A DNA stretch of 58,761 nt, the filler included, from Ionaspis alba (lineage: Eukaryota), in NCBI GenBank assembly GCA_964255285.1. It is 4 parts of 4 records of this genome, joined end to end, with 100 filler letters (N's around TTAATTAATTAA, not from the genome) between each part and the next. Parts side by side here need not be neighbours in the genome. Positions count along the whole stretch, not along the records: positions 44,156 to 58,761 come from CAXUUL010000412.1; 3 more parts are not named here. One strand, 5' to 3'. Made by a program: the position numbers and the translations under genes. The notes below the pieces were generated by a model. That model was not told the origin of the DNA and searched no databases. It saw only the letters and a list, made by a program, of their open reading frames with translations. Shown piece by piece: positions 52,112 through 57,401 of the stretch. Positions within the stretch are counted from its first letter, which is position 1. The number at the start of each line of letters is the position of its first letter.

Positions 52112-54311
52112 ATGTCTGACAAGTTGACTCGGCACGTTATCTCACAGGGTCATCTATGTAGTATTAGTGCTAATCTTCTGCCTTGCATAGTATTGCGATT
52201 GTCAATAATGACAAGGTGCCACCTCCCTACTCGCCCCTCCAAGAGGCCCCTCCAAGAAGTACATATGCTAAGCATCGATGAAATCCGTCCAGTGCAAACC
52301 AAAGGTCTGCCAACTACCAACTCCACCTACATGCACGGTCGACTTATGAAGTTTAGAAATGCCGGCAAGAATGCAAGAAGTCCTGTCCTGTGGTCCGAAC
52401 TGGCAAGCTGTGCATCGAGGTCACACCAGAATCAAAAATTGCCTTTATCTCAGAGCGTCTATGCATTGGTTGTGGTATCTGCGTAAAAAAGTGCCCATTC
52501 AGTGCCATTAACATCATCAATTTGCCCACCAATCTCGAGTCCCAAGTTACCCATAGATACTCGGCCAACAGCTTCAAGCTCCATCGACTGCCGATGCCCC
52601 GTCCTGGACAGGTATTGGGGCTTGTGGGTACAAACGGAATTGGCAAGAGTACAGCGTTGAAGATTCTCAGTGGCAAGCTCAAGCCAAATTTGGGGAGATA
52701 TGACAACCCGCCGGATTGGGAGGAAATATTGAAGTACTTCCGGGGCTCCGAGCTCCAAAGTAAGTTCTCTCAAGTGGCGATATGTGGGACCTCTAACGGA
52801 TTTCAGATTATTTCACCAAGGTTCTGGAGGATGATCTGAAGGCTGTTGTGAAGCCCCAATATGTTGATCAGATTCCCAAGGCTTTGAAGGGGTCCGATCG
52901 TTCTGTTGAGGGTCTCCTGAAAGCACGTTCCCAGATGAACAATCTCGACAAGATCTTGGATGTGCTAGGTATAGATTATGTTTCCTTCCTCTGACCTTAG
53001 CTAACATCTCTACAGAACTCGAGCAAGTTCTTGACCGAGACATCGATAAGCTTTCGGGCGGGGAATTGCAAAGATTCGCTATCGGTATCGTCTGTGTACA
53101 ACAAGCGGATGTGTAAGGAGATTCACAAGCCAATTTTGGCCTACTTTGACCAGACTTATAGGTACATGTTCGACGAGCCGTCGTCCTACCTCGATGTAAA
53201 GCAACGCCTCAATGCTGCCAGGACCATACGTGATCTGCTTCGTCCTGATGACTACGTGATTGTTGTCGAGCACGATCTGTCAGTGCTGGACTACCTTTCC
53301 GATTTCATATGCGTTCTCTACGGAAAGCCAGCTGTTTACGGTGTTGTGACGTTGCCGGCTTCAGTCCGCGAAGGTATCAATATTTTCCTGGACGGCAACA
53401 TTCCAACGGAGAATCTTCGCTTTCGGGAGGAATCCTTGACTTTCCGCATTGCCGAGGCTGGAGATGACTTTCTAGTCGATAAGGATCGCGCCTTCAGCTA
53501 TCCAGCTATGGAGAAGACTCTGGGCGGGTTCCATCTGAAGATCGAACCTGGACAGTTTACGGACTCGGAAATCATTGTCATGATGGGCGAAAATGGAACT
53601 GGGAAGACTACGTTCTGCAGAATGCTAGCAGGCGCGGAGAAGCCGGACGGAACCAAATCGGTGCCTCAAATGAACATCTCCATGAAGCCGCAGAAGATCA
53701 CCCCCAAGTTCACTGGAACGGTACGGCAGCTGTTTTTCAAGAAGATCAAGGCATCGTTCTTGAATCCTCAGTTCCAGACAGACGTGTACAAACCCCTGAA
53801 ACTGGACGATTTCATAGATCAGGAAGTGCAGAATCTGTCGGGTGGTGAATTGCAGCGTGTCGCTATCGTCCTCGCCCTTGGAATGCCAGCGGACATCTAC
53901 CTGATCGACGAACCAAGCGCTTACCTTGATTCTGAGCAGCGTATTGTTGCTGCTCGTGTGATCAAGCGCTTCATCATGCACGCCAAGAAGACAGCGTTTG
54001 TGGTCGAGCACGATTTCATAATGGCTACTTACCTGGCAGATCGTGTCATTGTCTTTGATGGACAGCCATCGGTGGATGCAAGAGCCAATACTCCCGAGAG
54101 TCTATTGACGGGCTGTAACAAGTTCTTGAAGAATCTCGATGTTACCTTCAGACGTGACCCTAACAGCTTCCGACCTCGGATCAACAAGAACAACAGTCAA
54201 CTGGATCAGGAACAGAAGTTGAACGGAAACTACGTGAGTCCAATACATTCCGAAACGACCCATACGTGCATACTGACCTTCTCATAGTTCTTCCTCGAAG
54301 ATGATAGTTGA
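52112..54311 (+). CDS. RLI1: ABCE1/Rli1 Fe-S ABC ATPase, ribosome recycling factor
   Basis: [43 protein letters not shown], two Walker A motifs ([16 protein letters not shown]) and two LSGGELQ. Introns 52132-52190, 52216-52292, 52305-52356, 52760-52806, 52969-53015, 53113-53161 and 54234-54287; last exon FFLEDDS*. Confidence 0.96.
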
Positions 54312-54531
54312 GAAGGGCGGCCCAAACGACAAGCATTCTAACGGGGATCATGCATTAGACAGAGGCGTTCCCGCGTTTTCCGGCATTGGTAAAGGCGCTG
54401 GCCAGCGCAGAGCAGGTCTCATTGACGATGAAGAATGTTCTGATGAAGACAATGATGACGACATACCGGGGCGACGGCAGTCGACCTCCTGCCACCTAAG
54501 TGCTGCTTCCTATGACAGCATACGCGACTAA
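54301..54531 (+). CDS. Candidate 76-aa ORF overlapping the RLI1 stop (alternative C-terminal exon or downstream ORF)
   Basis: ATG at 54301 lies 8 nt upstream of the RLI1 TGA (54309-54311) in another frame. The peptide has a G/R-rich core followed by an acidic tract. Confidence 0.4.
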   Translation: MIVEKGGPNDKHSNGDHALDRGVPAFSGIGKGAGQRRAGLIDDEECSDEDNDDDIPGRRQSTSCHLSAASYDSIRD

Positions 54532-55008
54532 CAGCACGACTCATGACTGGCGCCTTCGAAATGAAGTAGAGGATGGTGGGTCAAGTTAGGTGATTGCCGT
54601 CTGGTTCAAGCATGACTTCAGCGGTGGAAGCATTATAGTGGGTGTGGTGATATGAAGAGCGCAGTCATTGAGCTAAGAAGTCATCTACAAGTAGGAGATA
54701 TTACGTACGAGAATCAAGGATTATGTTGTCTGATGTTGACCAACCGATCGGACTCTTTGAAGCTGGTAGTGACGGTGACAATGACAGCAGGACAGGAAAG
54801 TCCAGGCTGCAACTTGACGTACCTAGATTAACACGGTCCCATGGCCCCACATCCAGCATACTTCCTAAACGAACCTCCTCGCCTAGCAATTGCCCCTGCT
54901 GTAGATGAAGTAGCACACATTCGACAATATCGAGTGTACTAACCTTCATCCCTTTCTCAATTCCGTATCAATCGCTCCACGCAACTCCCCACTCTAGCCG
55001 CTTCCCGC

Positions 55009-57401
55009 CTACTCCTCCTCCACCATCTCCCCCTCCTCACTTCCCGAATGCACCGCCACCTCCTCCTTAGCCGGCACAGGCGGACTTCGACTCTTCCTCT
55101 TCACCAAACTCCTCTCCACACGAACTCTCTTCCGACTTCCCACACTCTCTCCATCACTATCACCTCTTCTTCTCCTTCCTCCACTCCCATAATCCAATTC
55201 ATCCCTCCCACCCCTCGGGTCACCCCTTGTTCGATACAGCCTCTCCCTTTCTTCCTCCCTGTCTCGTCTCCCATCACGATCGTAGCTTGCCAATCTCCCT
55301 TCCGCATGTCTGCTCGATATCCGCTCGTGCCGATCCCGCTCCACGCGATCACGAGGTGGTGGCGAAAGCCCAGTGGCGCTCGATTTCCTATACTGGCGTT
55401 CGCGTTCCGCAATAGCTTTCCGGCGATCCGCTTCGTAAGCATCTGGCTCCGGAGTACGACTCGCTCTGCCTTTCGGCTCCCGGCGACGATCTGAATGCCC
55501 ATTCCGCAGATCCCGGTCCCGATCGCGTTCCCGCTCACGGTCATGATGCTCTCGCTTGCTGGCCCTCTCTTTCTCGCGCTCTTTTTCTGCATCCTCTTCT
55601 TTTTCCCGGAGACGGCGGATCACCTTGTCGAATGCTTGGCGGCGCAAATCATCTGAGTCTAAAGCTTTGTATTCGTCCAAGTGGATGATTTGTGGGCGGA
55701 CTGATTCGAACTTGGACATGGAGTGTACGGGCGGGTTGTCGAGGTGTTTGATTTTGGAGCGCAGAGCGTCGATGAGGCGGCGTTGGTGGCGTTCGGAGGC
55801 GTGCTTGTCATCTTCAGTACGACGGATTACTTTTTCAAGGAGGCGGTTGAAGATTAGAGTGAGCGTTTCCTCGGGCACCGGTGCTGTACGTCGGTCCGTA
55901 GACATCAGATCTAGGAACTCAGGTAGACTAGTTTTCGGTGTGATTTCGTAGCGTTTGTCCTCCAGAACATCGTAGACGTCATTCCGGACGAGACGTAGAG
56001 CGCGCTCTTCTTCTTCGACCATGTCCCAGAAAAGATCGAGAGGTGTGGACCCGGCTTGACCGAGCATGGTTGTATAACGGGGCTCGGATTGGATTTCAGG
56101 GTAGATCTGCATCCATTTCGTACCAGCTTTGATCTTTCCTGCTGATTTCAATTCCTGGAGCAGAGTTAGGAATCGGTCTCTGTTCTGGCGCTCCCTCCTA
56201 GCTTTGGAATTCTTCTCGCGCTGGCGCTCGTCGTTGAAATTGCGTTCCAAGGACTTGATGTGATTCTCGAATGCAGTCAAAATGTCTGATTTGCTCAGTG
56301 TCTTGAACTTTTCGTCTTCAGTAAATCTATCGTTGGATAGGATGATTGTGTGAGCTTCAGCCCATCTCGTATACGGCTCGAGATCGAGAGCTTTAAGAAT
56401 TCCAACCAGCTCATCCATTGCAGATTTTCTAGTTATAGCTTCACGTTCCACATTGACCTTCTTCAGCTCAACAATATATTCTTCAAAAAGTTGACGACGT
56501 TCGGTGTCATCGTTGGTAGAGCGGAAAATCGTTTCCCGCTCGATGATGGGTCTTGCAGTTTTCCAGCGAGTGTAGTGCTTGATTTCGGGATGACTCCTCA
56601 ACATAATTCCGAAATCACTGCGAAGCTTTGCCAGTCTCTCCTTCGCTCGGTCCTTCTCCTGTGCCCGGACCTCTACTGCATATTTCTCGAAAGCCGCCTT
56701 TCGATCTTTAGGATCTTTCAAAGCTCGATATTGTGGATCTTTTATCGTAGCTCGCATCGTCTGCTCCCATGTCCAGTCCGGTTGTACATTCGATCGTCGA
56801 AGCAGCTTAATGAATGCTGCCTCGCCCTCCTCGAACGTAGAGTACTCTGGATCCGTGGATGCTGGCTGGAATGTTGGTCCGCGCGCGCCATTTGTATCGC
56901 TTTGACCATATCCAATCTGCCTCTCAGGCCCAACGCGTTCTCCGTAGTCGTCTCGGTCGCGCTGCTGCTGGGGATATGAAGGAAAAGAACTCGTGCCGCC
57001 GGCAACGAATTGTTGTGCACTAGATGTATTCAGCAAGAAAGATAGCAAGATCAAGACTAAGACTCACGGTGGAGGTATTTTGGCGGCAGGCTGAGACTGC
57101 GCCAGAGCGCTTTTGTAGACCTCTGGCATTTCCCACGAGCTTGCCTTCGTCTCTGTATTGTACCAATACTTGCGCCCTCCCTCCGACGTATATTCCTTCC
57201 ATGGTTGATTTGCGAGAGCACGCTGTATTACATCAGTGTCAGGAGTCCAGTGTAGGAGCCTCGATATCCTACCTCTGCCGGACTCATGAGCTCTGCTGGC
57301 TTGGTCCATTGTGTCGCCTTAGTCTGAGTGTTGTAGTAGTAGACACGACCTTCCGGCGTACTGGCCTGGCTCCACGAAGACTCCATGGGAACACTGTTCA
57401 T
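55009..57401 (-). CDS. PRP40: U1 snRNP-associated splicing factor with 2 WW and several FF domains
   Basis: WW1 WSQASTPEGRVYYYNTQTKATQWTKP, WW2 WKEYTSEGGRKYWYN...SSWEMP, FF repeats (AFIKLL...WEQ...DPQY), GSTPLDLFWD and terminal SEEGEM. Introns 57223-57272 and 57020-57067. Confidence 0.95.

Follow-up and report, generated by a model that had tools for sequence, protein, structure and literature searches.

The mRNA of the ribosome-recycling factor RLI1/ABCE1 in the fungus Ionaspis alba and its relatives appears to carry a two-part 3′ module that may sense recycling and act in autoregulation, an explanation that we prefer while giving it a little less than an even chance. The first part would be a tail open reading frame (ORF) starting at the stop codon of RLI1; the small peptide that it encodes opens with a G-[IV]-P motif, followed by a core of Gly, Lys and Arg residues and an Asp/Glu tract. 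The second would be a long hairpin whose internal loop is conserved and whose base lies 4–7 nt past the tail stop in about half of the lineages.

We analysed a window of 58,761 nucleotides from I. alba (GenBank assembly GCA_964255285.1, filler included; positions count along the whole stretch). The 3′ end of RLI1 and the tail ORF are arranged in it as follows.

53162–54233, + strand: last large coding exon of RLI1/ABCE1 (open frame 53001–54287).
54234–54287, + strand: last RLI1 intron, 54 nt, phase 0, GT..AG (sequence; one spliced contig).
54288–54311, + strand: last RLI1 exon, consisting of FFLEDDS and the TGA stop (54309–54311).
54301–54531, + strand: tail ORF, 76 codons from the ATG at 54301 (P0001), in frame +1 relative to RLI1 and ending with TAA at 54529–54531.
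54306–54324, + strand: conserved stretch at and just past the stop, with the Ser codon, TGA and the tail-frame codons K-G-[GIV]-P (nucleotide alignment).
54379–54420, + strand: Gly/basic core of the tail peptide, SGIGKGAGQRRAGL (tblastn and profile alignments).
54424–54462, + strand: acidic tract of the tail peptide, DDEECSDEDNDDD (tblastn and profile alignments).

The portion of the tail ORF past the RLI1 stop starts at 54310, and the neighbouring gene downstream is convergent. The conserved stretch at 54306–54324 was defined from a 20-locus nucleotide alignment and the stop contexts of 73 loci. A sequence-only reading of this DNA had described the FFLEDDS exon, the 76-codon +1 ORF with its core and acidic tract, and AG dinucleotides ending at 54300, 54312 and 54315 that would link the phase-0 donor to the ORF frame. 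All of these are present, and a further AG ends at 54307.

If the window alone is considered, the tail ORF is within chance (p about 0.09–0.14). At least 73 codons were open past the stop in one of the three frames in 8.8% of mononucleotide shuffles of the region 54312–55008, and a dinucleotide shuffle gave p = 0.14. This unremarkable length (p = 0.088 and p = 0.14) is what favours the view that the frame is functionless and open in the 3′ UTR by chance, which the sequence-only reading had allowed for. Per-locus shuffle p values for frame openness ranged from 0.01 to 0.44, and frame openness by itself is a weak test. The tail ORF is nonetheless beyond chance because it is conserved in relatives, which is invisible from the window alone.

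Relatives were collected by tblastn with the RLI1 residues from 53163 as query; 543 loci were found and 80, all from metagenomes and 61–94% identical to the query, were kept. The taxonomic range of the module was gauged from RLI1 identity alone. Most related loci have an RLI1 C terminus of the type FFLE[DE][DE]S*. Reading by eye identified the tail architecture in 46 distinct loci: a frame open from the RLI1 stop, the G-[IV]-P start motif, the Gly/basic core and the acidic tract. With P0001 as tblastn query, about 30 of the 80 loci matched directly 3′ of RLI1 on the same strand (E values from 3e-17 to 1e-3), and a hidden Markov model (HMM) built from 18 tails matched 33 of 73 loci at E < 1e-3, with no reverse-frame match in any of the 73. 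In both searches the tail lay always on the RLI1 strand and immediately past the stop. Twelve loci with the tail in frame +2 are below the reach of the profile, and the case for their homology is their architecture, as judged by eye, together with the pN/pS of three pairs. The conserved tail ORF would comprise about 45–60 codons, and the Gly/basic core is its best conserved peptide block in the tblastn and profile alignments. Run X1 has three extra nucleotides in the acidic tract, inserted after 54456 and preserving the frame.

As judged from substitutions in frame-blind nucleotide alignments, the tail ORF is under purifying selection at the protein level. pN/pS was 0.53 in the ORF frame versus 1.01 and 1.05 in the other frames, and the ORF frame had the lowest ratio in 19 of 19 pairs. 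Differences at codon positions 1, 2 and 3 were 0.229, 0.212 and 0.356, which makes third positions 1.6 times more variable than first and second positions. When the acidic tract was excluded, 12 independent pairs gave 0.50 versus 1.09 and 1.06, with the ORF frame lowest in 11; in the exception, L002–L003, the lowest ratio lay outside the ORF frame. All seven internal gaps in the tail are multiples of three. In a control region, the 180 nt downstream of the ORF, pN/pS was 0.86 in every frame and 6 of 33 gaps were multiples of three. The same constraint was found in intron-less pairs (pN/pS 0.28–0.59), and the +2 and 0 frame groups gave pairwise values of 0.45–0.75. A search 3′ of RLI1 orthologues combined with a selection analysis was the check that the sequence-only reading had suggested; the frame turned out to be kept and under constraint. 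Since it is both conserved and under purifying selection, the tail ORF is not a chance 3′-UTR frame. The conservation, the frame-specific selection and the in-frame indels over many lineages leave that explanation with a negligible probability, and in our judgement it is already refuted by the pN/pS tests and the downstream control. Antisense coding was also rejected: the antisense frames contain stops in most loci, and the phase-matched one is open in 13 of 46 only.

The second element lies right behind the tail ORF. It spans 54473–54601, has a variable apical part and is made up of the following predicted pieces.

54473–54487, + strand: 5′ arm of the outer helix, with 10 bp, one bulged base and 4 bp (covariation; RNAalifold).
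54488–54587, + strand: interior of the hairpin (RNAalifold on 18 loci and alignment).
54489–54496 with 54572–54579, + strand: inner helix within the interior (RNAalifold).
54580–54587, + strand: conserved internal-loop strand, 8 nt (RNAalifold and alignment).
54588–54601, + strand: 3′ arm of the outer helix (pairing and RNAalifold).

Covariation in the alignment indicates that this hairpin is a conserved structured RNA. In the 14 pairs of the outer helix, 95.5% of 266 cells are paired and 8 pairs have changed on both sides, a score matched by none of 500 shuffles; RNAalifold on 18 loci recovers the same helix. A covariance model, R1, matches only 54465–54607 within the 58.7-kb window. Across loci it finds a single copy per locus, always on the + strand just past the tail, including in seven loci outside the training set (E up to 5e-4). 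The tail stop lies 4–7 nt ahead of the helix in 11 of 20 distinct loci; in the remaining lineages, the window included, the ORF extends into the hairpin, with the TAA of the window (54529–54531) inside the interior. The sequence-only reading contained no hairpin downstream of the tail ORF. Another hairpin, suspected by eye within the Gly/basic core, was dropped, as RNAalifold predicts none there.

A covarying hairpin directly behind the ORF could also mean that the 3′ UTR holds an RNA-level element only, with peptide conservation as a by-product of RNA conservation and no translation. Several features point in this direction: RRQSTSC of the ORF is the 5′ arm of the hairpin and in many loci remains conserved past in-frame stops, conservation of the Gly, Ile and Pro codons past the stop extends to their third positions, and the GAN codons of the acidic tract could also amount to a purine-rich element in the RNA. 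However, third positions across the tail are the more variable ones by the factor of 1.6 given above, excluding the acidic tract still leaves pN/pS at about half its value in the other frames, and multiple-of-three gaps number 7 of 7 in the tail, compared with 6 of 33 downstream. Within the tail ORF no consensus structure is predicted by RNAalifold, and no Rfam family was found, so that we regard a purely RNA-level element as highly improbable. The Rfam 15 search returned three chance-level matches (E 2.9–6.1), far below gathering scores, and a reading of the acidic-tract DNA as a box C/D snoRNA or hammerhead-like element was dropped, the matches being at chance level only.

The way in which the tail is attached to RLI1 differs between lineages. 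Relative to the RLI1 stop, the tail frame is +1 in 29, +2 in 12 and 0 in 5 of the 46 distinct loci, and the alignment places the changes in 2-nt and 4-nt indels immediately past the stop. Thirteen of the 46 loci have an in-frame exonic ATG no later than +6, and 22 have one anywhere upstream of the acidic tract, leaving 24 without. The last intron is present in 19 loci and absent from 27. The conserved peptide sets in 3–8 nt past the RLI1 stop in every lineage. The rarity of an early ATG, the patchy intron and the variable frame argue against a fixed frameshift, restart at an AUG and alternative splicing, and are in keeping with entry by ribosomes for which termination or recycling at the RLI1 stop went wrong.

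The release factor 2 gene prfB and antizyme are autoregulated by +1 frameshifting, with the translation- or termination-linked factor sensed at a stop in its own mRNA; in these systems neither the frame relation nor the shift site varies, and the functional protein is made by shifting. RLI1 is similar in that a second frame overlaps its stop and that most loci are +1, with a Ser-UGA context that may be conserved, but Rli1 is complete ahead of the stop and the tail frame varies (+1, +2 or 0), the +1 relation holding in 29 of 46 loci beside 12 in +2 and 5 in frame 0. Programmed +1 frameshifting at the RLI1 stop, in which slow Ser-UGA termination would lead to one skipped base and an Rli1–tail fusion, is in our view unlikely. 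It would suit the 29 loci in frame +1, the window among them, and the AGT-TGA-purine context in which most of these end, though synonymous sites elsewhere are saturated; a fused +1 product beyond the stop has been detected in ABCE1 knock-down human cells (PMC7544199). It would not explain the other 17 loci, in which the ORF is in frame +2 (12) or 0 (5) under equal constraint (pN/pS 0.45–0.75), and the 2-nt and 4-nt indels directly past the stop would destroy a dedicated +1 site. The RLI1 stop is TAA in three lineages (L003, L010 and L080), and RNAalifold predicts no stimulatory structure beside it. Stop contexts vary further: AGC, AAC, TCG, GCT and TCT also occur as last sense codons, one of the five in-frame tails follows a TAA stop, and in most of the +2 group the RLI1 stop is overlapped by CTG or TTG. 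A role of preferred codons in selecting the tail frame was not supported, the mean RSCU of the first six codons being 1.02, 0.98 and 0.87 in the three frames.

Alternative 3′ splicing to the acceptors at 54300, 54312 or 54315 would produce an ABCE1 isoform with the tail and without FFLE, and was one of two explanations put forward from the sequence alone. The window does have the in-phase AGs, its FFL codons form a pyrimidine run ahead of the AG at 54300, and intron-bearing +1 loci, inspected by eye, usually have an AG 13 or 16 nt beyond the canonical acceptor. Because the intron is absent from 27 of 46 loci, however, such splicing cannot be general: an intron does not accompany the tail wherever it is conserved, and the 27 intron-less loci keep the ORF under equal selection. 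The sole intron-spanning contig, 151 nt long and from run X1 (presumed RNA; depth 2), splices 54233 to the canonical acceptor at 54288. Intron retention as a route was rejected, being in frame in about 6 of the 19 intron-bearing loci, which is the chance rate. Searches of sequence databases found neither a longer protein with the tail nor an RLI1–tail fusion, which is weak evidence; the single match of 164 aa is an ORF call running through the intron. We accordingly give alternative splicing only a very small probability. A branch-point-like motif at the tail stop, with the following CAG as a 3′ splice site, was dropped because it needs the last-intron donor, missing in 27 of 46 loci.

Metagenome gene callers give the tail as a stand-alone ORF of 47–164 aa (28 proteins), as would be expected of an independent small gene that adjoins RLI1 by chance and has a transcript and a start codon to itself, and the 22 loci with an in-frame exonic ATG ahead of the acidic tract fit this too. 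The other 24 loci lack such an ATG. With the peptide starting 3–8 nt past the RLI1 stop in every lineage, any promoter or leader would, for lack of space, have to lie within the RLI1 coding sequence; the tail is always on the RLI1 strand right after the stop, and the following gene in the window is convergent. A separate gene is thus improbable. Pfam-A searches with seven tails found no family for five of them and one sub-threshold low-complexity match (E 0.06–0.13) for the other two, and the ESM Atlas yielded no useful match to the tail (best score 0.81).

A recycling reporter was the other explanation offered by the sequence-only reading, which tied it to the AUG-N5-UGA overlap. The generalized form of this idea is now our best explanation, but the overlap itself is not conserved, an early ATG being present in 13 of 46 loci. 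Termination–reinitiation at overlapping stop and start codons favours AUG in its efficient cases, according to the part of a review cited here (PMC10275272). The window resembles such cases in having an AUG 5 nt ahead of the RLI1 stop, as does the +2 group with its CTG or TTG across the stop; RLI1 loci differ in that only these 13 of 46 place an AUG within a few nucleotides of the stop.

Under the two-part module that we favour, the tail would be translated only by ribosomes that are at the RLI1 stop after faulty termination or recycling. These could be unrecycled 80S ribosomes that resume without an AUG in any frame, or stalled ribosomes that are shoved beyond the stop. Both kinds of event would be commoner when ABCE1 is limiting, and tail translation would therefore report ABCE1 activity on its own mRNA. 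An incoming ribosome would meet or open the hairpin, alter mRNA fate or translation and so close an autoregulatory loop. The tail product could stand alone as a peptide or extend Rli1 at its C terminus, and the feedback could have either direction.

Precedents for both options come from budding yeast and human cells rather than from these fungi. In budding yeast depleted of Rli1/ABCE1, 80S ribosomes reinitiate in 3′ UTRs (Young et al. 2015, as related in PMC5972666 and PMC10275272). As far as these accounts go, they do so near the main stop, with no AUG required and all three frames open to them, and more so when ABCE1 is limiting; the events are treated as a side effect of failed recycling throughout the genome, from which no selected product arises (PMC5972666, PMC10275272). 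The AUG-less, frame-variable, stop-adjacent tail ORF fits these properties: it starts beside the main stop, occurs in all three frames and has no conserved AUG. It differs in being one selected 3′ frame, on the RLI1 mRNA itself and paired with a hairpin. In human cells with limiting ABCE1, ribosomes stalled at the stop are reported to continue in or out of frame in a frameshift-prone readthrough, much as proposed for the tail; C-terminally extended proteins may result, and sequence context may set the frame (Annibaldis et al. 2020, PMC7544199). The experiments relied on reporters in knock-down cells, and the portion of the study cited here mentions neither a natural extension that is conserved nor any connection with the ABCE1 gene (PMC7544199).

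AMD1 has a conserved C-terminal tail in its 3′ UTR that is in frame and reached by readthrough, with the regulatory event occurring at the tail's own stop through an arrest peptide, according to the part of the report cited here (PMC13025110). The RLI1 tail is likewise a conserved coding extension in the 3′ UTR, past the main stop, with conservation at the protein level (pN/pS 0.50–0.53 versus about 1.0). Unlike the AMD1 tail, it lies outside the main frame in 41 of the 46 loci, so that in-frame readthrough would serve only 5, and the hairpin stands where AMD1 has its arrest peptide.

Taken further, the tail and hairpin might form a dedicated sensor of recycling capacity within the recycling factor's own mRNA, in which resumed ribosomes hit the hairpin and tune RLI1 expression. 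This reading we regard as possible rather than probable. With ABCE1 in short supply, ribosomes remaining at the RLI1 stop would restart in the tail frame without a start codon, and RLI1 expression would be adjusted by their encounter with the hairpin or by the peptide made. A conserved peptide is more than a pure ‘ribosome transit’ sensor would need, so the product may also act in its own right.

If correct, 80S reinitiation or stop-codon ‘pushing’ would here, for the first time, have been put to use by natural selection, and release-factor autoregulation would gain a counterpart at the recycling step. Recycling capacity would be measured at one stop codon and fed back on ABCE1, a new logic among the few translation-factor autoregulatory circuits. 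Under any mechanism, a core translation gene would gain two new conserved elements, one a small coding sequence and the other a structured RNA. What purpose, if any, peptides from 3′-UTR translation have is a question raised in PMC5972666; a selected 3′ frame with no conserved start or frame, running from the RLI1 stop to a covarying hairpin, makes it testable in fungal genetics. The literature searched contained no account of any conserved ORF or structure downstream of RLI1/ABCE1, and RLI1/ABCE1 goes unmentioned in the main text of two fungal structured-RNA screens.

The run X1 contigs (depth 2; presumed RNA) span 54160–54361 and 54382–54528, and differ from the window at five positions within 54382–54528. 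Alignments of the X3 contigs, which are about 80% identical in coding sequence, do not reach the tail and end at 54220/54235.

The 3′ end of RLI1 (ABCE1) and its surroundings in the window contain the following features:

54234–54287, plus strand: last RLI1/ABCE1 intron, GT..AG, from sequence
54288–54311, plus strand: last RLI1 exon, FFLEDDS then TGA, from sequence
54301–54531, plus strand: 76-codon open reading frame (ORF) P0001, ATG at 54301 to TAA at 54529–54531, +1 relative to RLI1, from sequence
54300, 54307, 54312 and 54315, plus strand: ends of AG dinucleotides, from sequence
55009–57063, minus strand: convergent 684-codon open frame, the next gene, by open-frame reading

The last exon, the ATG 54301 frame and the AGs described in the sequence-only reading are all present at these coordinates. 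Judged from the window sequence only, the ORF is unremarkable: some frame stays open for at least 73 codons past the stop in 8.8% of intergenic-stretch shuffles, and a dinucleotide-shuffle test gave p = 0.14. As the neighbouring gene is convergent, the ORF is not an upstream exon of a plus-strand neighbour. By eye, the 55009–57063 product looks like a pre-mRNA-processing protein: it has a series of helical, FF-like repeats and a tail rich in Arg, Asp and Glu.

We searched metagenome contigs with a 357-residue query from the last large RLI1 exon, confirming 543 relatives and retaining the best 80 (61–94% identity). The sequence-only reading had proposed comparing the core of the ORF peptide with the regions 3′ of RLI1; by tblastn with P0001, about 30 of these best 80 loci gave a hit right behind the RLI1 match and on its strand (E = 3e-17 to 1e-3). 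The RLI1 stop could be placed in 73 of the 80 loci and in the window, and the three downstream frames were translated. Reading these by eye revealed a common tail architecture in 46 distinct loci, with a frame open for 44–139 codons from the RLI1 stop: an (E/L)K-G-[IV]-P start, a Gly/Lys/Arg core and a terminal Asp/Glu tract. The other 27 loci comprise 9 duplicates, 1 truncated at a contig end, 5 fungal-like loci without the module and 12 distant, non-fungal-like loci. Two loci, L041 (3694–3770) and L043 (4207–4280), carry GTATGT... after FFLEG, most likely an intron placed unlike the last intron of the window; their automatic stop call is wrong owing to this unrecognised intron, and 'without the module' is poorly supported for at least two of the five. 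An HMM built from 18 tails matched 33 of the 73 loci at E < 1e-3, counting seeds and their duplicates, and none of the reverse frames of the 73 loci. A group of 12 loci lies beyond its reach (tails KG[VI]...KRRR.IKSGADE...acidic) and was counted in on architecture and the selection test. In protein collections, phmmer against 1.84 billion representatives returned 16 proteins including P0001, and a profile scan of 5.8 billion returned 28. Nearly all are nameless stand-alone ORF calls of 47–164 amino acids, two are labelled 'hypothetical protein', and none belongs to a known family in Pfam or the Atlas.

To measure coding selection, 19 pairs of moderately diverged loci were chosen by similarity and aligned as nucleotides, so that no frame was favoured, and Nei–Gojobori proportions were computed in all three frames; the 14 of the 46 loci that lacked a close partner did not enter the test. 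The tail frame had the lowest pN/pS in all 19 pairs (0.28–0.75; pooled, 0.53 versus 1.01 and 1.05), with 0.229, 0.212 and 0.356 differences per first, second and third codon position. Since GAN repeats might mimic a coding signal, the test was rerun without the acidic tract, using 12 non-overlapping pairs: pooled pN/pS was 0.50 versus 1.09 and 1.06, every pair except L002–L003 (11 of 12) had its lowest ratio in the tail frame, and all seven internal gaps were multiples of 3. In a control region of 180 nt starting 30 nt past the ORF, pN/pS was 0.86 in each frame and 6 of 33 gaps were multiples of 3. The RLI1 coding sequence itself gave ratios mostly of 0.005–0.2 at similar synonymous divergence, and the antisense frames of the tail contain stops in most loci. 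Together, the tail-frame ratios, the gaps and the control show moderate purifying selection on the tail as a protein. Of note, the close relative in sequencing run X1 has a 3-nt insertion at 54456–54457 that adds an Asp codon in frame within the acidic tract, as is expected of a coding tract or of triplet-repeat slippage alike.

The conserved peptide starts 3–8 nt past the RLI1 stop in all loci, yet its frame relative to that stop varies: +1 in 29 of the 46 loci, +2 in 12 and 0 in 5. Alignment traces these shifts to 2-nt and 4-nt indels directly after the stop, with the tail intact. A fixed +1 frameshift site therefore fails for a sizeable share of the family. Restart at an AUG does so too, as only 13 of the 46 loci carry an in-frame exonic ATG no later than +6, and 22 have any in-frame ATG ahead of the acidic tract. 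The AUG–stop overlap noted earlier exists in the window but is not conserved among relatives, ATG 54301 deriving from the RLI1 Asp-Asp codons. In 10 of the 12 +2 loci (L014, L026, L031, L037, L039, L042, L044, L047, L048 and L053), a tail-frame CTG or TTG overlaps the stop (N-TGA), a near-cognate overlap absent from the +1 group. The stop is TGA in 43 module loci and TAA in three (L003, L010 and L080). The last RLI1 residue is nearly always Ser, mostly AGT, despite saturated synonymous sites elsewhere (window 54306–54311, L001–L080); distant relatives without the module have other C termini, such as ...DD or ...DE.

Alternative splicing into the tail, the other proposal of the sequence-only reading, has the AGs in its favour, but as a general route it fails for much of the family: 19 loci have the last intron and 27 lack it, and pairs without it are as constrained as pairs with it. 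One 151-nt X1 contig (depth 2) joins 54233 to 54288, the canonical junction, and runs on to 54361; a second (depth 2) spans 54382–54528. That X1 is RNA is a guess. No alternative junction was seen in the single spliced contig, too few to exclude one. In L009, L031, L052, L053 and L072 the last intron, if retained, would read straight through into the tail frame, and prokaryote-style gene callers emit RLI1–intron–tail ORFs such as P0024 (164 amino acids); in-frame retention of this kind occurs at about the chance rate and is no evidence of an isoform.

Passages in PMC5972666 and PMC10275272 reporting Young et al. 2015 describe unrecycled 80S ribosomes that resume translation in each of the three frames with no start-codon preference, and a passage in PMC7544199 describes collision-driven passage beyond the stop, in and out of frame, with fused products possible. 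A stop-adjacent start, variable frame and no conserved AUG match the pattern under limiting ABCE1, from which we infer that tail translation may be tied to ribosomes failing to terminate or be recycled at the stop of RLI1 itself.

The RRQSTSC end of the window ORF stays conserved past in-frame stops in many loci, and its coding stretch forms the 5′ arm of a helix, which pairs with a 3′ arm 24–322 nt downstream. Across an alignment of 19 loci, this outer helix has 14 pairs (10 bp, one bulge, 4 bp), with 95.5% of 266 cells paired and two-sided changes in 8 pairs (23 cells); none of 500 shuffles matched its score, and slid controls paired at 19–60%. RNAalifold, run on 18 loci from the stop on, recovered the same helix, added an inner helix beyond an asymmetric internal loop bearing a conserved 8-nt strand, and predicted no consensus structure within the ORF. 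A covariance model found one copy per locus, always on the plus strand just past the tail, including 7 loci outside the training set (E up to 5e-4) and a single window copy at 54465–54607; no Rfam family matched. About 400 nt separate the hairpin from the stop of the convergent 55009–57063 frame. Of 20 distinct loci, 11 have the tail stop 4–7 nt ahead of the helix; in the rest, among them the window, the ORF runs on into the hairpin. In both arrangements a ribosome ending the tail would stand at or in the hairpin base. The hairpin is thus placed as a putative output side of the module.

We consider the ORF and hairpin very probably real, conserved features. That ribosomes enter the tail after termination or recycling has failed, with feedback from the tail on RLI1, is a tentative proposal, to which we give slightly less than an even chance; the observation behind the sequence-only reading holds, and its interpretation is supported in part. 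The closest working likeness is the 3′-UTR translation that follows ABCE1 depletion, although here the frame is selected, conserved in sequence and on RLI1 mRNA. The proposed logic of the module resembles release-factor and antizyme autoregulation, and the module also resembles the AMD1 tail, but it lacks the fixed frame and site that define those systems. No description of the module was found in the portions of the literature searched, including main text of fungal structured-RNA screens.

Another sequencing run, X3, yielded two distinct long contigs, one of 36 kb and one of 18 kb, whose RLI1 coding sequence shares about 80% identity with that of the window (52355–54235), as well as short contigs identical to the window, indicating several related organisms in one run.
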